Sequence record: CP068400.1
Source: a plasmid
Strand: one strand, 5' to 3'
Length of the DNA stretch: 19,650 nt
In this document: one piece after another, positions 1 through 19,650 of the stretch
Position numbering within the stretch: the first letter of the stretch is position 1
How the letters are laid out: every line of letters starts with the position of its first letter
The notes under the pieces: model-generated
Told to the model about the DNA's origin: nothing
Database searches by the model: none
The model's input: only the letters and a program-made list of their open reading frames with translations
Translations under genes and position numbers: made by a program

Positions 1-1462
1 GATCTCCCCACCGGTTACTGCCGGTAACGTAGACATCCCTCCGCCTCAGACTATCCTGCAGTTTACTGAGAAAGCAGAGCGTGTATCCCCTGCGGGTGAT
101 ATGTTTTTCCTTGTTAATCACCAGCCGTTTCCATGACCGACTGATAATTTCCGTTGGTGCGTCGTCAAAAAACTGCCGCCGTGAGCTGAACTCCCGGCTG
201 AGGTAGTCACAGGCATTCAGAGTGGTAACCCCGGCAGGTGCGGATGAAAATTTAACGGTATTCAGCAGATGGGGCAGGAAACGACGAACGCGCCCGTACT
301 GCTCCACCATTTCTTCATGAAAATTATCGTCTGAGGGCCGGGCAATTTCACGGACAAGCGTGATGATTTCAGCCAGCTTTTGCCTTGGGATGTAGCTGAA
401 CACCTCAGCACGAATCGATTCGTCCGGTGTTTCTTCTTTCAGCAGGTACGAACATGCGCTGGCGAGCGCCAATGCAGATTTATCCAGATCCTTCAGCGAG
501 CGGAGCCGTTTTTTCTGCCCAATCTTTCTGGCGTCACGGATGATAACGGCCAGCATGGCGTCCAGAACGTCCAATGCATCATCCAGCGCCAGCGTTTCCC
601 ATGCAAGGACAAAGGCAACCAGAACCGCCATCCTTTTCTGCGGTGACATCCTGGCAATATTGAACACCGAAGTCATACCAGCATAACGTGCGAGATTTTT
701 CAGGCGCACAGCCGGGAGTGTACTCAGGTTTTCAGCATGCAGGCCAAAATCGTTCAGAGTTTTCCAGCGTTCAATTGCTTCATTAAACGCCGGACCACTG
801 ATGGTCACAGGGCCCTTTTTCAGTGATTCCAGTAAAGACAGGCGGCTGCAATCAGTTGGCCCCAGCAGCATCTCCAGCTGTGAACGCTGTTCGGCTGACG
901 GTATCAGTGCCAGTTTGTTCCACAGGCGCAACGTCGCCTTTTCCCTTACCTCTGAAATCAACCGGGTCAGCGTAGTGGCTCCGGGGAGAATAATACGATG
1001 TTGCATAAGCCACCCTGTCGCCAGATCGAAAAGCAGGCCAGGACGTTCGTTGCTTATCCAGCTCCGGGTATATAAAAGACGGGTAAGGCGAAATGTCCAG
1101 GGCCAGGCAAATTCACGATACTGATAGTGCTGACGTATCAGCGCTGCATGCTCACGGCGGGTATTTTCCCTCTGACCGTATTCTGCAAGAACGGTGATAT
1201 CACGAATCCCGAGCTGTCTGGCGGTAAAATGCCGGACGCCGGAAGGAATATGATTCATATCGGTGAGGAAGGTGCCCAGAAAACGGACACATCCAATTTG
1301 CAGGGCAATGCCCAGACGGTTGTGATCACCTCTGCTTTTTCCGATAAATTCCTTGTCTGCTTCATCAAGGTGAAAATATCGTGCCAGCTGAAGCTCATCC
1401 GGTTCACCGGTGAATCTGCCATAGCTTTCAGTCTGCTCAGTGGTCAGAAAGTCAACGGGCAT
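1..1462 (-). CDS. tnpA: Tn3-family transposase TnpA, 5' part (N-terminal 487 codons); continues across the circular junction into 18107..19650
   Basis: Minus-strand translation from ATG at 1462..1460 gives MPVDFLTTEQTESYGRFTGEPDELQLARYF..., recognised as the Tn3 TnpA N-terminus. A GGGAGG Shine-Dalgarno lies 6 nt upstream. The frame stays open to base 1. Plus-strand ORFs in 380..1480 are antisense artefacts. Confidence 0.95.
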   Translation of the reverse strand, partial: MPVDFLTTEQTESYGRFTGEPDELQLARYFHLDEADKEFIGKSRGDHNRLGIALQIGCVRFLGTFLTDMNHIPSGVRHFTARQLGIRDITVLAEYGQRENTRREHAALIRQHYQYREFAWPWTFRLTRLLYTRSWISNERPGLLFDLATGWLMQHRIILPGATTLTRLISEVREKATLRLWNKLALIPSAEQRSQLEMLLGPTDCSRLSLLESLKKGPVTISGPAFNEAIERWKTLNDFGLHAENLSTLPAVRLKNLARYAGMTSVFNIARMSPQKRMAVLVAFVLAWETLALDDALDVLDAMLAVIIRDARKIGQKKRLRSLKDLDKSALALASACSYLLKEETPDESIRAEVFSYIPRQKLAEIITLVREIARPSDDNFHEEMVEQYGRVRRFLPHLLNTVKFSSAPAGVTTLNACDYLSREFSSRRQFFDDAPTEIISRSWKRLVINKEKHITRRGYTLCFLSKLQDSLRRRDVYVTGSNRWGD

Positions 1463-2183
<721 letters not shown>

Positions 2184-2295
2184 TACGCCTATTTTTATAG
2201 GTTAATGTCATGATAATAATGGTTTCTTAGACGTCAGGTGGCACTTTTCGGGGAAATGTGCGCGGAACCCCTATTTGTTTATTTTTCTAAATACA

Positions 2296-2324
2296 TTCAA
2301 ATATGTATCCGCTCATGAGACAAT
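2296..2324 (+). promoter_or_regulatory. bla P3-type promoter (-35 TTCAAA, 17-bp spacer, -10 GACAAT)
   Basis: TTCAAA at 2296-2301 and GACAAT at 2319-2324 upstream of bla. This matches the classical TEM promoter arrangement. Confidence 0.7.
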
Positions 2325-2353
2325 AACCCTGATAAATGCTTCAATAATATTGA

Positions 2354-3226
<873 letters not shown>

Positions 3227-3335
3227 CTGTCAGACCAAGTTTACTCATATATACTTTAGATTGATTTAAAACTTCATTTTTAATTTAAAAGGATCTAGGT
3301 GAAGATCCTTTTTGATAATCTCATGACCAAAATCC

Positions 3336-3373
3336 CTTAACGTGAGTTTTCGTTCCACTGAGCGTCAGACCCC
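3336..3373. repeat. Tn3-family 38-bp terminal inverted repeat (bla-proximal end)
   Basis: CTTAACGTGAGTTTTCGTTCCACTGAGCGTCAGACCCC is the exact reverse complement of the repeat at 18074..18111. Confidence 0.95.
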
Positions 3374-3378: not shown

Positions 3379-4196
3379 ATCCGATCATGCAGCCGCCTCT
3401 TATGGCCCCGTGGCTTATCGGTCACGTTGAGAACGGCGTGCCTGCCTGGTCAGTCTGGATTGGCGACAGCCAAAGCGAGGCCATACAGCGCCAGCTGCTG
3501 CGTAATCCATCAACAGAGTTTCACAACCAGCGCCCCGGAGTGACAGGGTTTAATGCGAGTGGCCACCCGGTTTATTTATGCGAGAAACACCCATCGACCC
3601 CACTCAATTGGGACTGGGACAGGGATGCCCCGACAGTAGGCACAGTGCGGTTTTATTGCCCTGAATGCGAGCCGAAGGCACGCCTTCTACCGCTCGCCAT
3701 TCCACGCTCCCCCATGCAGTTTATGACAGCTCAGGAAGCGGCAGAGATACACGCCACAGTGGAGGATAAAGCAGACACCGCAGCCATCTGCGCCGATTGC
3801 CACCGGGCACCGCTGCGAATTGCCAGAGACCGATCAGGCTTTGTTACTGCGTCATGCCCTTGCTGCAATGCCAGCGCTACCTCCTCCGGCAATAATGTCT
3901 CACGCAAGTGGATTGACCCGGAGCCAGTCCAGCCGCGCTATTTCGGCGTCTACCGGGCTGCATACAACGATTTCCCATTGAGCGGTAGCGGTGCAGCTGC
4001 GCTGCAATTGGCGTCCACTTTACCCCTAACGCTGGAAAGGGTGCCGCAGCTCCTGTTTAACCGCTTACGGGCCTGCATTCTGGCTGCGCTGGGCGAATGG
4101 GAGTATCTGGACGGGCTCATGATCGACACCGAACGTGGCGACGGGCCGGAACTTCTCGCCCTGCTGGCACAGCTACGGGCGGCAGATTTGTCGTGA
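3379..4196 (+). pseudogene. 3' part (~272 codons) of a backbone gene for a multi-zinc-ribbon protein, interrupted by the Tn3-family insertion
   Basis: The reading frame NPIMQPPLMAPWLIGHVENG... continues in-frame from 17677..18073 once the transposon and one TGGGA copy are removed. It contains CxxC pairs (FYCPECEP, CADCHRAP, SCPCCNAS). Stop codon at 4194-4196. Confidence 0.75.
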
Positions 4197-4233
4197 CAAC
4201 ACACTGGGGCCTCACAACAAAAAGAGGCATCCC

Positions 4234-6984
4234 ATGGCTATTAAAATCCCGGTCAGTGCGCAATTTGATGCTGCTGACCTTAAACAACAGATCCAGATGG
4301 TCAACGACCAGATCCGCGTCCTTGCTTCGCAGGTTGGGCAAGCCAATAAACAGAAGTTTGAGCCCATTAACCTGCGCTCAAAAGACGATCTGAATGCTTT
4401 CATTAAGCAAATGCAGAAGCTGCTCTCCATCCAGACAGAGCTCAAGCAGACCATGGGCAAGACCGGACAGGGCGCGACTAACCCGCTTATGGCTGACTGG
4501 TCAAAGATGTATACCGATCAGGCAGTACGCATCAAAAAAATGCAGTCCATGCTCCAGTTTCTCGGCGTGGAGTTTAACGACCAGCCAGCGCCGAAACCTA
4601 AGCCGCCAGCACCTACCCCCTCAAATCCTTCACCTGCGCCTCATAGCAGGCCGCAAAACAATAACCAGCCTCCGGCATGGCAGAACCATCTTAGCACGAT
4701 GCTACGCAACGCTGGCCCGGTTGGCGGCACCATTAGCGGCGCAATGAATGCCGGGCTTTCTGGCGGTGCTGGTGCAGGGCTCATGGGCTTAGTAGGCGGT
4801 CTCGCAGCTCTCGGCGTCGGCAAAATCATTGGTGCGATTGCGGACAAGATCGGACAGGCGCAGGACAACGTGATCGGGCTGGATAAGCTCTATCGTCAAG
4901 TGGGCGGAATTGTCAGCTTTTCCAGCCTCCAGCGTGGTGTCATGAGTACCGCCAACCGTCTGGGCATGACCAACGGTGACGCAATCGCGCTGGCCTCCAC
5001 TTATTCCCGCGCCGCTAACATCCAGCCGGGCCAGAACCTTGGCACCGGAATGCTGGTATCTGGCGGTCTGGCACGTTCCTACGGTCTCGACCCAAACAGC
5101 GTCGCGGGCACAATCGGACAGCTCTCCGCCTCCCGTGTCGTAAATAACGATCAGCAGCTGCGCCGCATGGGCCTGCTCATGGGGGAGGCTATCGGCAAAT
5201 CAGGTGCGTTTGCTCAGGCTGGCGAAGCAATGCAGGCAATCAGCGACTTTGCCACCCAACAGGCACGCATGAGCCTGACCGCGCCTAATGTGCCTGGCTA
5301 TGCGGGTGCAATGGCTGGCCTGATGAGCTCAGGGATCCCCGGTATGGATTTGCAGGGCTCCACCAACCTGCTGGGCCGCGTTAATGCGAACCTTCAGCGC
5401 GGTGGCGCGATGGGCGACCCATCACGGGCATTTATGGCCCGCATGGCCCTCCGCAACGGCATCAATAACCCGATGGCGCTTGAAGTCCTCCAGTCTGGCG
5501 GCGCTTTCGGCACAATCAGCAGCACTCTGGGGCCTGATTCGCTGTACGGTCAGCGTTTCGGCGGCAATTATCAGGGCGATCAGACTCTTCTCGATATGAC
5601 CCGGCAGAGCATCCATCGCGCCTATGGTTACGGCCCTGATTCAGTCGTGGCGCTCTCTCGCCACCTTGGCGTCGGTATCAATGACGCGCTGGCAATTGAC
5701 CAAATGAGCAGCGCAGATATGAGCGGCGTTTCTGATCGCCTCAGACGCCTGAAAATTAACCCTGACAGCGTAAACGCAACCAGTTACGCAGCACTGGGCC
5801 AGATCCAAAGTGGCAAAGGGCTGGAGGTCATGGGCAATGAGTACCTCAAGCGTGGGAGCCTTGATGCTGGCGAACGCCAGCGCCTTACCGATGCCCTTCG
5901 AGGGGCTGACCCGCAGAAGCTGAAAGACGTGCTCACTGAGGTTGCCGCAACGCATGGCCCGGCTAAAACAGAAGGGAGCGAGATCCGCGATAATGTAGCG
6001 AAACTTAATAATCAATTTGAGGATTATGCACGCCGCGCCCTGCCTGCTCTCGATGTCATGCGTATGGCGCTGGTCAAAATGACCGGGGGCAGTGAGGACA
6101 GTCTGCGCCGCGATTATGAGAAGGGGATGCGCCTCGATACGCAGCAGCAGGCCCGCCGCAAATACGGCTGGCGTCTCGATGCCTACCAACAGGAAATGAA
6201 CACCTTGCAGGACAAGGGCGTCGGTATGCAGACCATGGGGCCAGATGGCAACCGATACAGGGCACTGAAACGCCAGCAGCACCTCATGCGTCAGCAGCAG
6301 CTCAACTTTGTAGAGCAGGGCAATGCAAATGCACACGCAGCTGCATACGGCCCGCAAACAGCAGGAGAGGCTGCGCTCGACAGCAACTATATTTCTTCAC
6401 CATCCGCCGCCGCAGCTGGCAGCGGTGCTGCCGGAAACTGGGCAGGGAACAATGTCGGCAACGTGAAAGACGTTAACGGCAACTGGCGGCGCTTCCCATC
6501 CCAGCAGGCAGGCGTCGCAGCGTCGGCGGGGCAGCTGCTGCGCTATAGCACCGGGGCATTCAAAGGCGGACGCAAGCGCACCCTGCGCGAGATTGTCAGC
6601 ACATATGCCAGTGGCGATCCTGAGGTGCCGCGCTACATCCGGCAGGCAAGCGAATGGACAGGGTACGGGCCAGATCAACAACTGGACTTAACCGACCAGA
6701 ACACGCTGCTGAACGTGACGCGGGCCATCCTCCGCAAAGAGAACGTGAAAAATGCCAGCATCCCGCAATCAGTGGTTACTGAGGGCGTTAACATGGCACT
6801 GAACAATCAGAACAACTACAAGATCGCCCCTGAAACCATGCCAGCCGGGCAACGCGGAGGAAAAATTGATATTTCAGACGCCAATATCAATGTAAACCTG
6901 CAATACCCTGATGGGCGCACACAAACGCAAAGCGTCCCGGTAAAAAGCTCTTTCACGCAGCCGCGCAGCTTTGCCAGTCGATAG
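4234..6984 (+). CDS. Large hypothetical protein (916 aa) with N-terminal coiled coil, Pro-rich linker, glycine-zipper hydrophobic helices and a long soluble C-terminal region
   Basis: ATG at 4234 with an AAAGAGG Shine-Dalgarno 6 nt upstream (MAIKIPVSAQFDAADLKQQ...). PAPKPKPPAPTPSNPSPAP linker. AGPVGGTISGAMNAGLSGGAGAGLMGLVGGLAALGVGKIIGAIADKIG is a GxxxG-rich TM-like segment. No family recognised by eye. Confidence 0.75.
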   Translation: MAIKIPVSAQFDAADLKQQIQMVNDQIRVLASQVGQANKQKFEPINLRSKDDLNAFIKQMQKLLSIQTELKQTMGKTGQGATNPLMADWSKMYTDQAVRIKKMQSMLQFLGVEFNDQPAPKPKPPAPTPSNPSPAPHSRPQNNNQPPAWQNHLSTMLRNAGPVGGTISGAMNAGLSGGAGAGLMGLVGGLAALGVGKIIGAIADKIGQAQDNVIGLDKLYRQVGGIVSFSSLQRGVMSTANRLGMTNGDAIALASTYSRAANIQPGQNLGTGMLVSGGLARSYGLDPNSVAGTIGQLSASRVVNNDQQLRRMGLLMGEAIGKSGAFAQAGEAMQAISDFATQQARMSLTAPNVPGYAGAMAGLMSSGIPGMDLQGSTNLLGRVNANLQRGGAMGDPSRAFMARMALRNGINNPMALEVLQSGGAFGTISSTLGPDSLYGQRFGGNYQGDQTLLDMTRQSIHRAYGYGPDSVVALSRHLGVGINDALAIDQMSSADMSGVSDRLRRLKINPDSVNATSYAALGQIQSGKGLEVMGNEYLKRGSLDAGERQRLTDALRGADPQKLKDVLTEVAATHGPAKTEGSEIRDNVAKLNNQFEDYARRALPALDVMRMALVKMTGGSEDSLRRDYEKGMRLDTQQQARRKYGWRLDAYQQEMNTLQDKGVGMQTMGPDGNRYRALKRQQHLMRQQQLNFVEQGNANAHAAAYGPQTAGEAALDSNYISSPSAAAAGSGAAGNWAGNNVGNVKDVNGNWRRFPSQQAGVAASAGQLLRYSTGAFKGGRKRTLREIVSTYASGDPEVPRYIRQASEWTGYGPDQQLDLTDQNTLLNVTRAILRKENVKNASIPQSVVTEGVNMALNNQNNYKIAPETMPAGQRGGKIDISDANINVNLQYPDGRTQTQSVPVKSSFTQPRSFASR

Positions 6985-9364: not shown

Positions 9365-9991
9365 ATGAATTGCATGATTTACATGAGGGCCAGCACTGAG
9401 ACACAGGACGCCAGCCGCGCAGAGGATGAGCTCAAAACCTTTGCCGCAGCTAATGGCCTGACGATCTGCGGCTGGTATCGGGAGAATATCTCCGGCACGC
9501 AGCTGGAGCGCCCGCAGCTCAATAAACTGCTGCACGACGCCGGGCCGGGATTTGTCCTGCTGGTTGAAAAGCTCGACCGCCTGAGCCGCCTCACCCGTTC
9601 AGAGTGGGAGCAGTTGAAAGAACGGATCAGAGCCAAACGGCTGCGCATCGTCTGCTGCGACATCCCCACGACGCTGGCGGTATTGCAGGGAGAACAGCCG
9701 ACCGGGGCGGGCGGTTTCGACGTTCGCAACGTGGTACTCGATGCGCTCAACTCGATGCTGCTCGATATTGCCGCAGCATGGGCCCGCGACGATTACGAGA
9801 CACGCCGGAAACGTCAGGCGCAGGGAATCCAAAAGGCAGTAGAGGCCGGGAAATATAAGGGGAAACAGCCCAACACGGCACTGCATAAGAAGATTTTGAA
9901 ATACGCAGCCGCAGGACATAAAACGGGGGAGATCGCCAGACTGGCGAACTGCTCACGCTCCACGGTGCTGCGAGTAACGCGAGAGCAGTAG
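9365..9991 (+). CDS. Serine recombinase/resolvase family protein (208 aa) of the backbone
   Basis: N-terminal catalytic domain IYMRASTETQDA with the Ser nucleophile. C-terminal HTH (GEIARLANCSRSTVLRV). GGGAG Shine-Dalgarno 8 nt before ATG 9365. Confidence 0.85.
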   Translation: MNCMIYMRASTETQDASRAEDELKTFAAANGLTICGWYRENISGTQLERPQLNKLLHDAGPGFVLLVEKLDRLSRLTRSEWEQLKERIRAKRLRIVCCDIPTTLAVLQGEQPTGAGGFDVRNVVLDALNSMLLDIAAAWARDDYETRRKRQAQGIQKAVEAGKYKGKQPNTALHKKILKYAAAGHKTGEIARLANCSRSTVLRVTREQ

Positions 9992-10036
9992 AAAAGATTT
10001 GGCCCCGTTGCGTTGGAGCGCAGCAGGGCCAGAGGC

Positions 10037-10074
10037 GGCGCGGATCAGGTGGCCACCGTAACCGCGCCTTTGTC
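10037..10074 (+). terminator. Hairpin GGCGCGG-(loop containing palindrome GGTGGCCACC)-CCGCGCC plus TTTGTC; weak terminator after the recombinase gene
   Basis: 7-bp GC stem with an 18-nt loop and a short T-run. Confidence 0.4.
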
Positions 10075-10100
10075 AGAACCAACCCAATGGAACCAACATT

Positions 10101-10295
10101 ATGATTATTGCATCACAGCGTCATACGGCGCAAACCTTCCCCGGACTCAGCATTGAGCATGGGCAGATCTACCAGCACGGAAAACCTCGCAGTGTAGCGA
10201 TGAACGGGCGCGGCATTCATCAAGTAAGCCTCAGAACTACAGAGGGGCGGGTGCTGACCCTGCCCGTCTGCCGACTGTTCGAGTGGCAGGCATAA
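10101..10295 (+). CDS. Possible small protein (64 aa); doubtful
   Basis: ORF with no clear Shine-Dalgarno; followed by a GGGGCCCC-containing palindrome at 10297..10322. Confidence 0.2.
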   Translation: MIIASQRHTAQTFPGLSIEHGQIYQHGKPRSVAMNGRGIHQVSLRTTEGRVLTLPVCRLFEWQA

Positions 10296-11359: not shown

Positions 11360-11529
11360 TCATTTTTTATTTTTAGGCAGCAGGCCCGGCAGGCGCTCGT
11401 CTGGCTGGGTTTTGCAGTGTCCGTGCGAAAGCACGGCCCATACCGTTCCCCCCTCAAACCATCCACCAAAGCAGAACCGCGTCACGCAGCTGCACCCTAA
11501 CGGGATGCACTTTGCGCCGCTATGCGGAT

Positions 11530-11618
11530 GTAACCTCATACGTAACCACTGTAACCACACGTAACCTTTTATGTAACCAGAATAAAATCATATAAATCAA
11601 TAACGTAACCTTGTAACC
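11530..11618 (+). repeat. Left iteron block of the origin: 7 direct copies of the hexamer GTAACC (consensus a/c,c/t-GTAACC) at roughly helical-turn spacing
   Basis: GTAACC at 11530, 11542, 11551, 11561, 11573, 11605 and 11613. Confidence 0.8.
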
Positions 11619-11692
11619 TTTTTTATAATAAATACTTTTGAATAAAAAAATAAATACATAGATATATATATCAACTAGCAATTAGCAAAAAA
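11619..11692. other. AT-rich DNA-unwinding element of the origin (about 90 percent A+T)
   Basis: ttttttataataaatacttttgaataaaaaaataaatacatagatatatatatcaactagcaattagcaaaaaaa lies between the two opposed iteron blocks. Confidence 0.7.
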
Positions 11693-11694
11693 AT

Positions 11695-11796
11695 GGTTAC
11701 GAGGTTACACATGGGTTAAGGCCACGAATGGCGGGGCTTTAGGCGTAACCATGGGGGAGGTTACGCATGGTTACACGTAACCTTTAATTTGGTTAC
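11695..11796. repeat. Right iteron block: 6 copies of GGTTAC/GGTTAA (inverted relative to the left block) plus 2 GTAACC, including the inverted pair GGTTAC-AC-GTAACC at 11769..11782
   Basis: GGTTAC at 11695, 11703, 11759, 11769 and 11791; GGTTAA at 11714; GTAACC at 11745 and 11777. Confidence 0.8.
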
Positions 11797-11802
11797 AGGT
11801 AC

Positions 11803-11822
11803 AAAAAAGCCCCTTTCGGGGC
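11803..11822 (-). terminator. Intrinsic terminator of the 518-aa gene (GCCCC-TTTC-GGGGC followed by T6 on the minus strand)
   Basis: AAAAAAGCCCCTTTCGGGGC on the plus strand; on the minus strand the hairpin is followed by TTTTTT, 6 nt after the stop at 11828. Confidence 0.75.
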
Positions 11823-11827
11823 TCTCG

Positions 11828-13384
11828 TTAATCGTTGGCGGCTCGCATCGTCATGCGGCTTGCTACCGTTTCCGGCAGCGGAGGGATAAGCGTACCCTTC
11901 ACAAACCCTGTCTTAGTTCGGTGAGTGGCAGGCTTACCGATAATGGCTGTACGGTCACGAATCAGCGTATTGAACTCATGCCCGTTCGTTTTCCCTGTAT
12001 AGGCACTGACGAACTCACGCCACCATTGAGCGACACATTTAAGCACAATGCCCTTTTCAGCCGATTCATACGGCAATCCGTGGCGCTTCTGCGCAATATC
12101 GGAATGCGCAAAGCTGTAGAACTCATCACAAATTTCGCCGTAATGGTCGGTGATAACGCCGGATGACTTGGCAAGGCCATACTTTTTGTGAAATTCATTC
12201 AGATACTCAGCAGCCTGCTTTGAAGCCAGCGCGGGGCCAGCCTGCTGGTAAGCCTCAATGCGGCTATTCAGACCCTTTGCAATGGCATCCTGTACCCGTG
12301 AGGCATAGTAACCGGGATCGGCCTGAAACAACGGACGGTCATTAACCGGGCCAGACTGGGGCTGGATATGTGAGAATCGGCGGGCGATCTGCTCATCAAT
12401 ACCGGATTCACTGATAAGACCAGGAATAGGATCAGCTGAGGTGTAAATCTTGGTGTAAAGCGGGACTGTCTGGGCTATCTGGTGCTTGGTTGATACGGTG
12501 ATCGCACTCTCCAGAACAAAGGATTTTTTCGTGATGCGCTCCGGCTCGTTAATCGCCAGAATCAGCGCCCGGACAAACTCGCTTGCCGTCCTGCCACTGG
12601 CTGACCCCTTCACGATGGAGTCCAACTCCTGCTCGTTAACTTCCACGACCAAACCCAGCTTTGAGAACGCCCCATTCTTACCGAACAGCAGCCCCTTACC
12701 GAAGTCAGAGACCGCCTGCAAAAACAGGTAAGCGTTTTTACGGTCTGGTGCGAAACGGGCTGCGGCGATCAGGTCGATAAGCTCAGGGAACTGCGGGAAA
12801 TGCTCGCGCCAGTCGTCATTGATGGCCTTGTCCAATTTTGTGACCGGGTAAGGGACATGCGCCAGAGTGATGCGTGCTTTTCCTTCCTCGTCCAGTGTGA
12901 CAGATGCGCTATCGGTGAACATATCAACCGCAACATGAAGGGCAACGAACTGCCGATATGTGCGGATGCAGTCACCAACAATGCCAGAGATAGCTTTTCG
13001 CAGGTCTGTCAGTCGTTCAGAGGCGGTTTTCTTGGTCAGCGCTAATGCTACGGCCTGCCCTGCTGCCTCTTTGCCCTTTTCGGTGTCATGGAAGAAGCCG
13101 CCACAGCTGGATTCAATCAGGCGGAAATCGGACGCTCCAAAGCGCTTAATATGTGCGGCCTTGTCCAGGTGGATGTATTGCTTTTTCTCCGGGAACCAGA
13201 GAGACCGGGAAAGGCAGTAAGCTATTGCAGGGAGGTTAATCCCCAACTCCTGCGCTTTCTCGCTGCGCTCCATTTCCGCCAATTGAAATAAGTCAGCGCA
13301 TAAATGCTCACGGACGGCGGCAATGATTTTGCCGAATAGCTGCGGGGGGAGCTCGATAAAAGAGGCCGTGATGTTATCTGCCAT
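11828..13384 (-). CDS. Large hypothetical protein (518 aa) flanked by the iteron origin (3' side) and DnaA boxes/leader elements (5' side); candidate replication initiator, no P-loop
   Basis: Long uninterrupted ORF MADNITASFIELPPQLFGKIIAAV... with an AAGGA Shine-Dalgarno. No GxxxxGK[ST] Walker A, no HUH motif, no family recognised by eye. The role is inferred from position only. Confidence 0.7.
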   Translation of the reverse strand: MADNITASFIELPPQLFGKIIAAVREHLCADLFQLAEMERSEKAQELGINLPAIAYCLSRSLWFPEKKQYIHLDKAAHIKRFGASDFRLIESSCGGFFHDTEKGKEAAGQAVALALTKKTASERLTDLRKAISGIVGDCIRTYRQFVALHVAVDMFTDSASVTLDEEGKARITLAHVPYPVTKLDKAINDDWREHFPQFPELIDLIAAARFAPDRKNAYLFLQAVSDFGKGLLFGKNGAFSKLGLVVEVNEQELDSIVKGSASGRTASEFVRALILAINEPERITKKSFVLESAITVSTKHQIAQTVPLYTKIYTSADPIPGLISESGIDEQIARRFSHIQPQSGPVNDRPLFQADPGYYASRVQDAIAKGLNSRIEAYQQAGPALASKQAAEYLNEFHKKYGLAKSSGVITDHYGEICDEFYSFAHSDIAQKRHGLPYESAEKGIVLKCVAQWWREFVSAYTGKTNGHEFNTLIRDRTAIIGKPATHRTKTGFVKGTLIPPLPETVASRMTMRAAND

Positions 13385-13469: not shown

Positions 13470-13560
13470 TGCCCGGTGATGATTTGTAACCAGCCCATGT
13501 GGTTCCAACGCAAATCAAAACTATTTCGCAGAGGCCCCAGTTACCAGCTGGGGCCTTTTG
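13470..13560 (+). ncRNA. Candidate ~90-nt countertranscript (antisense RNA) from the promoter at 13435..13463 to the terminator at 13532..13560
   Basis: The promoter is followed about 70 nt later by an 8-bp GC stem (AGGCCCCA/TGGGGCCT) and TTTT. No convincing ORF with a Shine-Dalgarno in the interval. Confidence 0.35.
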
Positions 13561-13670
13561 CATTTCAGGGATAAGCATAGCGATCCAAAACGGCGTCGGC
13601 AAGCGATGATCAGGCGTCGATCTTCATCTTTTTTGCGTCACCCCTCCCCTCCTTACGTCATGCCTGCCGT

Positions 13671-13709
13671 TGTGGATAAGTTGTTGTTGAAAAGGTGATT
13701 TTATCCACA
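13671..13709. promoter_or_regulatory. Two perfect consensus DnaA boxes (TTATCCACA) in inverted orientation, 21 bp apart
   Basis: tgtggataa at 13671-13679 and ttatccaca at 13701-13709, both 9/9 matches; a third degenerate copy (ctgtggac) lies nearby. Confidence 0.65.
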
Positions 13710-13834: not shown

Positions 13835-14353
13835 ATGAAAGAGAACAAAACAGCCGCCCTGAGCCTCAGGCTCCCGGCAGATCTCATGCAGTTACTTGAT
13901 GAGCGAGCCAGTGCTGAACACCTCACCCGCACAGATATAGCGCTGGCTGCGCTCCGGGAGTACCTCGGCGTCGCTACAGCTCCGGCAGCGTCTGACAAGC
14001 TCGATAGGGTGATCGAACTACTGGAAACCATTGCTGGGAATGCCCCACAGCGTAAGACAGCCGCACCACAGCGTCAGACAGTGCAACACGCTGAAGCAAC
14101 ACAACGTAACACGCCGTCAGGCAATGAAATACAGCGTAATACGGCGCGAGCCGCCGATCCTCGTTTTCATGCCGTAGACCCTGAGGCCGATGCCATGATA
14201 GTGCGCATGAGTGCTGAGGGGGCCGGGCTGGCTGACATTACGAATGCGCTCAATGCGCTGGGCTTTACCAGTGCGACCGGGCAGGAGTGGACACGCAGCC
14301 GCCTGCGGGACTATCGGCATAAGCTGCGGGATAGTGGACTGCTCAATGGCTAA
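13835..14353 (+). CDS. Ribbon-helix-helix (CopG/Arc/MetJ-like) DNA-binding protein, 172 aa
   Basis: The N-terminal LSLRLPADLMQLLDERASAEHLTRTDIALAALREYL fits the RHH beta-alpha-alpha pattern. The gene overlaps the downstream gene by 8 nt. Confidence 0.7.
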   Translation: MKENKTAALSLRLPADLMQLLDERASAEHLTRTDIALAALREYLGVATAPAASDKLDRVIELLETIAGNAPQRKTAAPQRQTVQHAEATQRNTPSGNEIQRNTARAADPRFHAVDPEADAMIVRMSAEGAGLADITNALNALGFTSATGQEWTRSRLRDYRHKLRDSGLLNG

Positions 14354-14807
14354 GAATAACTACGGCATTAATGGCTCACCTAACAGCCATATAGCCCACC
14401 CAGCAGGGCTCCCATGTTTTGGCTCTTTACCGGAGTTTGTTTCAAGAGGGGATGTAATACCTGCCGGGGATATATTTCTGCGCGTGGGGAATCATAGAGG
14501 CCCTAATAGCGGCTTTGGCGTGCGTCATATATGGGCAGAGCATGAAAAGGAACTGGTGCGGCTCGGTTATCATACCGTGAATGATGTGGCCCGTTTCGTG
14601 TGTGACGTTATTCAGCCAGGTGCTGGAGTGTATTGTGAGTTCAACCATCCGGGTGGGAAGCACAGGCCGAAGGTTTTACGTTCAGCGCTTGGGATCGTCA
14701 TACTGGAGCCAAAAGAGGCTGACTGGGCTCAGAGCGGATGGATTTACAGCGTAGTAACCGCGTATGAGACTCACAGGACGCAAGGCACGTTGTTAGGCAG
14801 GTTATAA
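14346..14807 (+). CDS. Hypothetical protein (153 aa) translationally coupled to the RHH gene
   Basis: The ATG at 14346 overlaps the RHH stop as ATGGCTAA. MAKNNYGINGSPNSHIAHPAG...HIWAEHEKE... has no recognised family. Confidence 0.6.
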   Translation: MAKNNYGINGSPNSHIAHPAGLPCFGSLPEFVSRGDVIPAGDIFLRVGNHRGPNSGFGVRHIWAEHEKELVRLGYHTVNDVARFVCDVIQPGAGVYCEFNHPGGKHRPKVLRSALGIVILEPKEADWAQSGWIYSVVTAYETHRTQGTLLGRL

Positions 14808-15909: not shown

Positions 15910-17127
15910 TCAAATATTGTGACTGGCATCCGATGAGCTCGGCCCGGACAGAGTACCGTCACGACTTTGGCGGGCTTCACGGAACAATGAGCGGAGGAGG
16001 GCGCGGGAATTGTCCACGCCATGACGGGCCAGCAGGTCAAATGGATCGTTGCCGTCCTCAAACAGGCAACGAGAAAGCGGCACGGAATAAACTGGAGGAT
16101 AGCGACGAGTGTTAGCCTCCGCGATACTTTGCGCTATCTCCTCGCCTACGCCCACGTCGCCCACGATGTAGATCGGGCTGTGGTCGTAAACAATGCGCAG
16201 CTCATCAATGACTGCGGCAAAATTATTGCAGCTCATTGCACAGAACACAGGCAATGCTCCGCCCATAGCGAGAGACAGGGCCAGCCCAGAGGTAAAACCC
16301 TCGCAGATAAACAGAGGTGAACCGTGACGGGCCTTGTCGATGTTGAACGGGTAGAAGCTCCCGCCACGCTGGGCACCCTTGAGGCCGCGTTTTGCTCCGG
16401 TGAATGACAGCTCAGTTTCTGGGCTAGGGCGACCGCAAACGATCTCGACGGTGCTCATGCCCAGCTGCAACTCGTCATCAAAGCGATACAAAGGGATAAT
16501 CATCGAGTGATTCCAGAAAATTCCCTTGCTGGATGCGCCTTTTTCAAAGGTGCGCCAGTTTGCGGCTTTTACGTCATCCGGGAGCGGTAGGGGCAGTGCG
16601 GCTGCACTGCATTTGCCCTGCCAGTATGGCGACAGCGCGGGATCGAGACTGGCCTTGTTATAAATCTGCGTAGCCTGCCGGACGGCAATCTGGCGCTGCC
16701 GTTCGTCAGCCTCCAGTGCTACCCGGTGGGCCTCCTCCATTTCCCGGCGCTGTGCTTCACGTCTGGCGAGGTCTGCGGCGGTCGGTTGGTAGGAGCCAAA
16801 GCGCCCAGAGTGGATCTCCGGGATAAGACCAGAATCACGCAGGAACGCGCCAGCCATGGAGAACGGGCTGAGTTTTTCGAGAGACTGAGGGCGGAGAGCG
16901 GCGCGAATAAGTCCCGCGTCAGCCGGGGCTGCATTAACGCCTGATGCGCTCCAGCGCTCGCAGATGGTCTGCGCATCGCCCAGCCTCAGGATGTTAGCCC
17001 AGCAGGCGATCTGCCGTACCTGCTGCACCCACCCAAGATAATCAGATGCAGGCAGCACGCGTGCCAGCGCCTCATCAAACACGCCGGGCCACAACAGGTA
17101 TTCGTCTTTGCTCTCGCTCATTCTCAT
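15910..17127 (-). CDS. Toprim-domain DNA primase-like protein (~405 aa), satellite-phage (P4 alpha-type) or plasmid primase-like
   Basis: C-terminal Toprim signature LFICEGFTSGLALS ... IYIVGDVGVGEEIAQSIA (invariant Glu and acidic cluster). The start ATG at 17127 overlaps the AlpA stop as ATGA. No helicase P-loop. Confidence 0.7.
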   Translation of the reverse strand: MRMSESKDEYLLWPGVFDEALARVLPASDYLGWVQQVRQIACWANILRLGDAQTICERWSASGVNAAPADAGLIRAALRPQSLEKLSPFSMAGAFLRDSGLIPEIHSGRFGSYQPTAADLARREAQRREMEEAHRVALEADERQRQIAVRQATQIYNKASLDPALSPYWQGKCSAAALPLPLPDDVKAANWRTFEKGASSKGIFWNHSMIIPLYRFDDELQLGMSTVEIVCGRPSPETELSFTGAKRGLKGAQRGGSFYPFNIDKARHGSPLFICEGFTSGLALSLAMGGALPVFCAMSCNNFAAVIDELRIVYDHSPIYIVGDVGVGEEIAQSIAEANTRRYPPVYSVPLSRCLFEDGNDPFDLLARHGVDNSRALLRSLFREARQSRDGTLSGPSSSDASHNI

Positions 17128-17309
17128 CTCTCCGGGCGTCTTTGCGCCTTGATTACCTTCTTTAGCTCCGGGGTAAGCCACCAGTAATGGCCTCCCGGAT
17201 ATGTCCTGCCGTCTGGGGTAGGTACTTTTCCCGCAGCGATCAGGTTGTCCAGGTGGCGAGCGCTGATCCTCAGTGATTCAGCGAGCGCCTTTCGATAAAT
17301 TTTTCTCAA
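17124..17309 (-). CDS. AlpA/Vis/excisionase-family HTH regulator (61 aa)
   Basis: LAESLRISARHLDNLIAAGKVPTPDG....WWLTPELKKVI matches the prophage AlpA-type pattern (HTH followed by conserved P.P and W). Confidence 0.55.
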   Translation of the reverse strand: MRKIYRKALAESLRISARHLDNLIAAGKVPTPDGRTYPGGHYWWLTPELKKVIKAQRRPER

Positions 17310-18073: not shown

Positions 18074-18111
18074 GGGGTCTGACGCTCAGTGGAACGAAAA
18101 CTCACGTTAAG
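18074..18111. repeat. Tn3-family 38-bp terminal inverted repeat (tnpA-proximal end)
   Basis: GGGGTCTGACGCTCAGTGGAACGAAAACTCACGTTAAG; the tnpA stop codon lies inside it. Confidence 0.95.
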
Positions 18112-19650
18112 CAACGTTTTCTGCCTCTGACGCCTCTTTTAATGGTCTCAGATGTCCTTTGGTCACCAGTTCTGCCAGCGTGAAGGAATAATGGCCGAGC
18201 ATATTGATATGTCCGTGGCAAAGCGGGGAGAGGCGTGCGATATCTTCATCATTCAGTGTTTCACCCTGCGCCCGGAGATGATCCAGGGCTGCCTGCATAT
18301 AAATAGTGTTCCATAACACGACGGCGTTAGTGACCAGCCCCAGTGTGCCCAGTTGATCTTCCTGACCGTCGGTATATCGTTTTCTTATCTCACCTTTTTG
18401 ACCGTGACAGATGGCTCTGGCAACGGCATGGCGACTTTCTCCCCGATTAAGCTGGGTCAGAATGCGCCGGCGGTAATCTTCATCATCAATATAATTAAGC
18501 AGATACAGCGTTTTGTTGATGCGCCCCACTTCAATGATTGCCTGAGTCAGTCCGGAAGGACGTTCACTTTTCAGCAATGAACGGACCAGCACTGAAACCT
18601 GTACTTTGCCCAGCTTCAGGGAGCCAGCGGTCCGGATCATTTCGTCCCACTGAAGGACTATTTTTCGGGGATCTGATTGCCCTCTGGCAATATCATTCAG
18701 CACGCCATAGTCGGCATCATGGTCCATTCGCCAGAAAACCGAAGCACCGGCATCAGCCAGGCGTGGAGAAAACTGGTATCCCAGCAGCCAGAAAAGGCCA
18801 AAGACAAGTTCGCTGGCACCTGCTGTATCGGTCATAATTTCGGTTGGATTCAGCCCGGTCTCCTGTTCCAGAAGACCTTCCAGCACAAAGATAGAGTCCC
18901 TCAGCGTCCCCGGTATAACGATGCCATGAAAGCCGGAATACTGATCGGACACAAAGTTGTACCAGGTGATCCCTCTGTTATTACCAAAGTATTTGCGGTT
19001 CGGTCCGGCATTGATTGTTCTGACTGGCGTAACAAAGCGCATTCCATCTGCAGATGCCACTTCTCCTCCACCCCATATCTGTGCCAGTGGCAGCGTTGCC
19101 TGAAAATCAACCAGTCTGGCATTAGCGCTGGTGATAGTTTCAGCCCGCAGATAGTTCGCTTTTGTCCAGTTCAGCCGGTGTCGGGTCAGTGCAGGAACAT
19201 TTGATCTGATCAGTGGTTCCAGACCGATATTGCAGGCTTCAGCCATCAGCACGGCGCTGATGCTGACGGGCAGATCATCAACTCTGGCACTGGCTTCACT
19301 GGCATGGAAAAACTCATCAGCAAATCCGGTATGGGCGTTAATTTCGAGCAGCAACTCCGTTAAATCCACCGGAGGGAGTAGATCACTGATCATTTTGCTC
19401 AGTCGTTTCAGACTGTCCGGCTCATCAAGACTGGCGAGGGGAGAAATTGTCAACCGGGGCTTCGGGCCAGAAACATCGAGTTCGACAGCCTCATTTTCGC
19501 AAAGACGTGCAGCAACCTGTCTGTAACGACTATCAAGCTGATGACCCAGAGATTTTATTGCTTCCTGCGGGTCTGTCGGGTGCCCCAAAGAACGATAAAC
19601 CTTAATCCGGTTTGCCTGCCAGTCAGCACCCTGTAGTAATCTTGCACGAG
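18107..19650 (-). CDS. tnpA: Tn3-family transposase TnpA, 3' part (C-terminal 514 codons); joined in-frame to 1..1462 across the circular junction (total 1001 aa)
   Basis: Minus-strand translation ...ARLLQGADWQANRIKVYRSLGHPTDPQEAIKSLGHQLDSRYRQ...EASEAENVA* is recognised as the Tn3 TnpA C-terminus. It has no start codon inside the window. The ORF-track M at 19588 is an internal TTG. Confidence 0.95.
   Translation of the reverse strand, partial: RARLLQGADWQANRIKVYRSLGHPTDPQEAIKSLGHQLDSRYRQVAARLCENEAVELDVSGPKPRLTISPLASLDEPDSLKRLSKMISDLLPPVDLTELLLEINAHTGFADEFFHASEASARVDDLPVSISAVLMAEACNIGLEPLIRSNVPALTRHRLNWTKANYLRAETITSANARLVDFQATLPLAQIWGGGEVASADGMRFVTPVRTINAGPNRKYFGNNRGITWYNFVSDQYSGFHGIVIPGTLRDSIFVLEGLLEQETGLNPTEIMTDTAGASELVFGLFWLLGYQFSPRLADAGASVFWRMDHDADYGVLNDIARGQSDPRKIVLQWDEMIRTAGSLKLGKVQVSVLVRSLLKSERPSGLTQAIIEVGRINKTLYLLNYIDDEDYRRRILTQLNRGESRHAVARAICHGQKGEIRKRYTDGQEDQLGTLGLVTNAVVLWNTIYMQAALDHLRAQGETLNDEDIARLSPLCHGHINMLGHYSFTLAELVTKGHLRPLKEASEAENVA

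Follow-up and report, generated by a model that had tools for sequence, protein, structure and literature searches.

The 19,650-nt DNA analysed in this study (CP068400.1; hereafter, the window) is a complete circular plasmid that carries 14 exact copies of GTAACC/GGTTAC within 267 bp (11530-11796). We consider it very likely that this array serves the plasmid as its origin of vegetative replication and that the 518-aa protein encoded next to it is the initiator, a function deduced from sequence comparison and from analogy with known systems. The first-pass annotation had proposed a replication origin of short iterons around an AT-rich unwinding element, closer to the origins of P4 and PICIs than to classic theta-plasmid iterons. 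This proposal was backed by every comparative test run on the sequences. Locating the origin and its initiator would explain how a plasmid family without a listed replicon type replicates, and would assign a role to a family of helicases that comprises about 490 clusters and lacks a Pfam model.

The iteron array and its flanking elements

Exact GTAACC copies on the plus strand start at 11530, 11542, 11551, 11561, 11573, 11605, 11613, 11745, and 11777, and exact GGTTAC copies at 11695, 11703, 11759, 11769, and 11791. The hexamer is preceded by a pyrimidine at position -1 in 14 of the 14 sites, giving the word YGTAACC. Shuffling gave an expectation of 4.46 ± 1.96 hexamers across the whole 19.65-kb window, and the background outside the array (6.7 per 10 kb) corresponds to approximately 0.18 copies in 267 bp; the Poisson estimate for 14 copies was P ~ 1e-21. 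About 15 copies had been counted in the first-pass annotation. The 14 exact ones were upheld, whereas GGTTAA at 11714 is probably not a site and was rejected as the fifteenth, since the closest sister origins do not retain it and have ATCAAA (L006) and GATGAG (L005) there.

The start-to-start spacings were 12, 9, 10, 12, 32, and 8 bp on the left, 82 bp across the centre, and 8, 42, 14, 10, 8, and 14 bp on the right; the spacing of about one helical turn ascribed to the repeats was true within sub-blocks only, with steps of 32, 82, and 42 bp elsewhere. The distal arm (11530-11578, plus strand) consists of five direct YGTAACC copies (11530, 11542, 11551, 11561, and 11573) placed 9-12 bp apart; L006 (GTAACC) and L005 (GTGACC) keep all five in register between spacers that have diverged. 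The motif TATAAATCAAT (11591-11601, plus strand), which separates this arm from the inner left pair, sits within a run of invariant columns in the alignment of the three origins (window, L005, and L006) and is possibly a site for a bending protein. The inner left pair GTAACCttGTAACC (11605-11618, plus strand) abuts the AT-rich core and has its counterpart in phage relatives, and the inner right pair GGTTACgaGGTTAC (11695-11708, minus strand) runs in the opposite direction and is kept in L005 and L006; together, the two inner pairs form a 47-nt imperfect inverted repeat (I1). After GGTTACgaGGTTAC, the right side continues with the gene-proximal arm (11745-11796), whose five iterons follow in the order + - - + - (11745 +, 11759 -, 11769 -, 11777 +, and 11791 -). 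The array had been described as two opposed blocks, which holds for the inner pairs, but the right arm is mixed in orientation and not purely inverse.

The AT-rich core (11619-11692), which is presumed to be the DNA unwinding element, measured 74 bp with 86.5% AT, in place of the 80 bp with about 90% AT given earlier. No 70-bp stretch of the plasmid is less stable: at -69.5, its nearest-neighbour dG departs from the plasmid-wide 70-bp mean (-101.5, sd 6.3) by about 5 sd toward lower stability. At the right end of the array, about 32 bp separate the last iteron (11791-11796) from the initiator gene's stop codon (11828-11830), with the intrinsic terminator of that gene alone between them (11803-11826, minus strand). 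This hairpin with a U-run (-15.4 kcal/mol, z = -3.3) is kept in L005 and L006. Thus, of the terminators expected on both flanks, that on the side of the initiator gene proved real, whereas that on the HTH side was weaker.

At the left end, a non-coding element of approximately 58 bp with a mini-hairpin (11470-11527) ends 2-6 bp ahead of the first iteron and forms the left joint of an exchangeable module (see below). The element is 90-100% conserved beside modules of the REP518, DUF927, DUF5906, and VapE types, with a constant stem and a variable loop in its mini-hairpin, and is missing from L003 and L009. A role as a priming site or a recombination anchor is possible. A separate hairpin, CCGTGCgaaaGCACGG (11421-11436), was observed 3' of the HTH gene and is kept even in pYe4449-2 (L003) and L009, despite the different left flank there.

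Two perfect DnaA boxes (TTATCCACA; 13671-13709) in inverted orientation, together with an additional box with one mismatch (13685-13693), are located upstream of the initiator gene, between this gene and the divergent RHH gene. In most relatives, DnaA boxes occur approximately 290-420 bp upstream of the initiator start independently of the module; they are a backbone feature, possibly with an auxiliary or regulatory function. These conserved boxes, 2 kb from the array, are another replication-related element on the plasmid. Inside the array no DnaA box was found except one match with one mismatch within AT-rich DNA. The cumulative GC skew, which had been suggested as a check on the origin, was uninformative: the curve was shallow with its minimum near 14.2 kb, not 11.65 kb, and a Tn3 copy interrupts the plasmid.

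No second GTAACC cluster was found in the window, which thus has one array only. Thirteen dispersed GTAACC copies outside 11530-11796 exceeded the shuffle expectation. They were rejected as extra binding sites and attributed to backbone composition, because the same density and sites were found in relatives carrying other modules. The copy at 13486 was also rejected as an operator, being absent at that site in L006.

The probable partner protein and the exchange of the module

Every member of the plasmid family has a slot between the HTH gene and a convergent gene, with the same layout and a differing word and helicase-type gene. The word was TGAATACAC (in L001) or GTGTTCA in the plasmids with a DUF927 initiator (L001, L011, and L013), GCCACT in that with a DUF5906 initiator (L002), and GTCACA, TGGCCCA, or GGAGACA in those with a VapE initiator (L003, L008, and L012), whereas GTAACC, GTGACC, or CTCACC accompanied the 518-aa protein and its homologs (window, L006, L005, and L009). 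Homology between the window and relatives with other initiators breaks at 11527-11533, where the first iteron begins (11530), and resumes at 13368, five codons into the 518-aa ORF, or at 13665. These boundaries therefore delimit the exchangeable unit as exactly the initiator ORF plus the array. The right-hand joint lies inside the ORF because the 518-aa type and the DUF927 type share the first 5-6 codons (MADNIT/MADSIT), the ribosome-binding site, and the upstream region (13368-13384 and the starts in L001, L009, and L011). The proteins of the two types had no detectable sequence similarity, and a profile of the helicase family, when set against one sequence each of the DUF5906, DUF927, and VapE initiators, a weak test, detected no relation to them.

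Among the origins with a homolog of the 518-aa protein, that of L006 (protein 87% identical) matched the window in all 84 bases of its 14 copies, as against 64% identity in the spacers and 81% in the AT core. In L005 (protein 74% identical), all 14 copies read GTGACC; 13 of these align in register, and the fourteenth is shifted in the alignment. L009 (protein 44% identical) carries 18 copies of the word (AC)CTCACC. The constancy of the copies while the spacers drift suggests that the word is under selection, and the comparison with L005 points to a concerted change of all iterons at position 3.

The first-pass annotation had named three possible binding partners of the iterons: the HTH protein, the 518-aa protein, and the Toprim primase. 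The HTH protein was 100% identical to that of the window in L002, whose word is GCCACT, 97% identical in L001 and L008, and 58% identical in L006, whose word is GTAACC; it was rejected because of its complete identity in L002 despite the different word. The Toprim protein was likewise rejected as the specificity partner, with 92% identity in L001 under the word TGAATACAC and 42% in L006 under the same word as the window. The RHH and resolvase regions are conserved among plasmids with different words (in L001 and L009, the RHH region keeps 93-94% identity), and neither protein was retained as a candidate. Only the 518-aa protein co-occurred with the GTAACC-type word. Hence, the data point to the downstream 518-aa protein as the partner of the iterons, and the co-occurrence argues against the HTH protein and the Toprim primase. 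As the word changes with the initiator and with no other protein, a cognate specificity between initiator and origin is suggested.

The identity of the word did not scale with that of the protein: relatives with 26-37% identity share GGTTAC, and one with 74% identity differs. Specificity must therefore rest on a few residues. The N- and C-terminal domains were the most divergent parts between homologs with different words, which fits a specificity determinant in one of these domains of the 518-aa protein. The sister plasmids thus form a natural series for asking which few residues set the hexamer specificity, how all iteron copies change together, and whether a swap of the initiator-origin module lets related plasmids avoid incompatibility.

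The Toprim-domain primase-like protein (15910-17181, minus strand) is encoded by a backbone gene separate from that of the helicase. It matched Pfam Toprim_3 below the cut-off and PHROG DNA primase families with E = 9e-12, and is probably the priming partner. Its gene is approximately 2.5 kb from the helicase gene, is linked to the backbone, and does not travel with the module.

We also entertain, tentatively and as a less probable extension, that the backbone provides a universal docking slot for cassettes of a self-loading helicase and its origin, in which the 58-bp element would have a function of its own, for instance in priming or as a recombination anchor, and not be passive homology. 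The slot would comprise the 58-bp hairpin element, the conserved promoter and first 5-6 codons (in members of the MADNIT/MADSIT type), the DnaA boxes, and the Toprim primase, and this backbone primase would cooperate with at least four initiator families without detectable sequence similarity (REP518-type, DUF927, DUF5906, and VapE). If so, cassette exchange at fixed joints would switch replicon specificity and incompatibility.

Two of the sister sequences showed further peculiarities. L005, a Scandinavium plasmid contig, contains at 9900-10150 an orphan array of 14 copies of the GCCACT type, which is the word of the DUF5906 type, without a DUF5906 gene; the orphan lies directly upstream of the GTGACC origin of L005 itself, and would be either left over from an exchange of modules or a second origin that can be used in trans. 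In the DUF927-type module of L013, a Citrobacter plasmid, the word GTGTTCA/TGAACAC (9595-10088) resembles the type I iteron of P4, TGTTCACC.

The 518-aa protein and the presumed mode of initiation

The 518-aa protein (11828-13384, minus strand) is predicted to be an iteron-binding, self-loading initiator-helicase with a D5-type SF3 fold. It belongs to no Pfam or NCBIfam family and has no sequence relative in the PDB. A match was obtained to PHROG 35045 ('DNA primase'), in the C-terminal part of that profile. An exhaustive search with the protein yielded 489 cluster representatives, most of which were 800-1000 aa long with the match in their C-terminal half; none of the 10 family members checked had a Pfam match. 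Named phages with the family include Vibrio phages CP-T1 and vB_VchM-138, in which the members are annotated as primase, and Pseudoalteromonas phages PHS21, whose member is also a primase, and AL.

A structure model from five sequences was poor (pLDDT 60) and was replaced by one from a 39-sequence alignment (pLDDT 92, pTM 0.83). Foldseek matched the latter to ASFV C962R, the C-terminal region of NrS-1, and mpox E5, at a sequence identity of 10-12%. The model also resembled SaPI Rep, to which no similarity was detected at the sequence level. According to this confident model, the protein would be a D5-type SF3 helicase. G229 and K230 (in SDFGKG) and E280 (in INE; DEF in the family consensus) were invariant in the 39-sequence alignment, and the SF3 fold was thus accompanied by a conserved P-loop lysine and a conserved Walker B glutamate. 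The Walker A motif SDFGKG is atypical, GKG replacing GK[ST]; these features are in keeping with a P-loop NTPase whose Walker A motif ends in an unusual way, and its ATPase activity is an assumption because of that ending.

Relatives of the 518-aa protein with 26-38% identity are encoded by 16 viral contigs, most of which carry arrays of 10-13 copies directly 3' of the gene, with the words GGTTAC, GGTAAC, GGAACC, or GGAACA. The phage layout runs from a gene-proximal mixed arm through an inner pair, an AT core, and an opposed inner pair to distal direct copies. A mixed-orientation arm similar to that of the window was seen in L016, L017, L018, and L025, and an AT-rich core between the inner pairs in most family members. 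As the phage relatives share it, the origin layout is an old property of the helicase family and not the peculiarity of one plasmid.

By analogy with SaPI Rep, the E1 protein of papillomavirus, and the T antigen of SV40, these findings suggest the following course of initiation. The 518-aa helicase would recognise the 7-mer YGTAACC, probably via one variable terminal domain, and protomers would bind both inner pairs, which are opposed on either side of the 74-bp AT core; the outer iterons would supply cooperativity. Two hexamers may then assemble and the AT core melt, whereupon the helicases would encircle single strands and move apart, with no need of a dedicated loader. Bidirectional theta replication would be completed by the host polymerase together with the Toprim primase, which has a gene of its own. 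The initiator ORF and the array form one exchangeable module, whose word would set the replicon specificity.

It is improbable, in our estimation, that the array is instead a helicase-bound copy-control, incompatibility, or cis-enhancer site, like crr of P4 or incA of P1, with initiation at the DnaA-box region. In its favour are the two perfect boxes at 13671-13709, conserved in most relatives, and a GC-skew minimum near 14.2 kb. Against it, the DnaA-box region lacks both AT richness and an unwinding element, whereas the least stable DNA of the plasmid is inside the array, between the inverted inner pairs. Moreover, the boxes stay constant across modules while each module brings its own AT core, and the same layout is an experimentally shown origin in SaPIs and EcCICFT073.

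An even smaller likelihood attaches to a parC-like partition centromere or a packaging site bound by the HTH or the RHH protein. The parC site of R1 likewise has two blocks of short repeats as the target of an RHH protein; an RHH gene is present on the plasmid, whose HTH protein weakly matches small-terminase families. However, plasmids with wholly different words have an HTH protein of 97-100% identity, and L006, which shares the word, has one of only 58%; the RHH region keeps 93-94% identity in L001 and L009, both of which have other words. In addition, no ParA, ParM, or ParB domain and no partition NTPase was found in the ORFs scanned, and in phages as well the array goes with a helicase gene. 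That the repeats are non-functional, as a simple-sequence expansion or a cluster by chance, is conceivable as a general possibility, the dispersed GTAACC copies being a matter of backbone composition; it can practically be dismissed given 14 copies against about 0.18 expected, copies that are conserved across three origins while the spacers drift, a change of position 3 in 14 of 14 copies in L005, and the layout shared by phage relatives.

Comparison with known systems and the plasmid family

As the origin that we favour, the array would work like a SaPI/PICI/P4 origin with a self-loading helicase, yet the element is not a PICI. The origins of SaPIs and Gram-negative PICIs contain six to twelve penta- or hexanucleotide iterons immediately 3' of rep, with an AT-rich centre and at least two iterons of opposed direction per side, and their Rep binds the iterons through a C-terminal winged helix and melts the origin without ATP and without a loader (PMC9371898, PMC6092414). 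The systems compared here were SaPI1, SaPIbov1, and SaPI5 of S. aureus and EcCICFT073 of E. coli. Common to them and the plasmid are many short (5-8 bp) iterons (14 YGTAACC in the plasmid), an array immediately 3' of the initiator-helicase gene, and opposed iterons flanking an AT centre, which in the plasmid takes the form of GTAACCttGTAACC, 74 bp with 86% AT, and GGTTACgaGGTTAC. In contrast, the plasmid has 14 iterons instead of 6-12 and is free and circular, not an integrated phage-inducible island with int, att, and helper-phage induction; its primase is 2.5 kb off and linked to the backbone, whereas that of SaPIs/PICIs is adjacent to or fused with rep. Its helicase also comes from a different sequence family, without detected sequence similarity to SaPI Rep, and its slot is accompanied by conserved DnaA boxes and the 58-bp element.

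The alpha protein of P4, an element that can also live as a plasmid, recognises the type I iteron TGTTCACC and has a C-terminal winged-helix origin-binding domain. The P4 ori/crr system resembles the plasmid in having short iterons of the octamer class, placed in either orientation next to AT-rich DNA and recognised by an SF3 helicase that is its own initiator, as is presumed for the plasmid. It differs in that P4 alpha fuses primase, helicase, and DNA-binding domain, whereas the plasmid helicase (518 aa) stands alone, in that P4 needs the second cis site crr whereas the plasmid has one array, and in its word and protein family. The D5-type SF3 primase-helicases (vaccinia D5/mpox E5, ASFV C962R, and phage NrS-1) gave the best fold matches to the 518-aa protein, but with only 10-12% identity, and the latter has no Pfam match and a GKG end of Walker A.

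Classic theta plasmids have 17-22-bp iterons bound by dimers or monomers of a winged-helix Rep that recruits host DnaB (PMC4980987). Those of the iteron type (pSC101, F, R6K, RK2, and P1) resemble the plasmid in that repeated initiator sites adjoin an AT-rich unwinding element and in having DnaA boxes on the replicon; unlike them, the plasmid has sites of 6-7 bp, an initiator predicted to be the helicase itself, and no Rep_3-type protein in the ORFs scanned. From parC-type centromeres the plasmid differs in having no partition NTPase in the ORFs scanned and HTH and RHH proteins that stay constant while the word changes. What goes beyond the known systems is the natural plasmid context, with four exchangeable initiator-origin cassettes at fixed joints, the concerted change of the word, and the conserved 58-bp element and DnaA boxes.

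The backbone of the plasmid without Tn3 is about 14.7 kb. The Tn3 copy (18074-19650 and 1-3373), with tnpA, tnpR, and a TEM-type bla, has perfect 38-bp inverted repeats at 18074-18111 and 3336-3373 and a TGGGA target duplication on both sides; the sequence is a closed circle because tnpA runs across the window junction. The plasmid family has here acquired Tn3 with a TEM-type beta-lactamase and thereby ampicillin resistance. The relatives form a 13-15-kb family from Enterobacter, Klebsiella, E. coli, Serratia, Citrobacter, Kosakonia, and Yersinia of clinical and wastewater origin. For all PLSDB records retrieved for this family, the typing line read only 'non-mobilizable', without a replicon type. 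The whole origin region was present in a single PLSDB record (CP056414.1), and the module of 518-aa ORF and array had no match in RefSeq complete E. coli genomes. A search of the available literature found no description of the plasmid family or of its replicon, the lone match for pYe4449 dealing with pYe4449-1.

Scanning of the ORFs revealed serine recombinases and the Tn3 transposase as the only recombination genes, and no integrase or helper-phage functions were seen on the plasmid. An AlpA protein had been placed on the replicon in the first-pass annotation, but the ORFs scanned contained no AlpA-type domain, nor any ParA, ParM, ParB, or Rep_3-type domain; an Rfam scan of the whole window detected no known RNA. 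The plasmid backbone encodes several further conserved proteins without a family match. A 949-aa protein (4135-6984) matched phage endolysin/lytic transglycosylase and tape-measure families, an unexpected find on so small a plasmid with a non-mobilizable typing. Finally, in the region 13835-14807 the RHH (CopG-like) gene precedes a gene whose annotation in L001 is that of a PBECR2 nuclease-fold protein; the two lie in divergent orientation to the initiator gene and may act as a regulator or an addiction-type pair.
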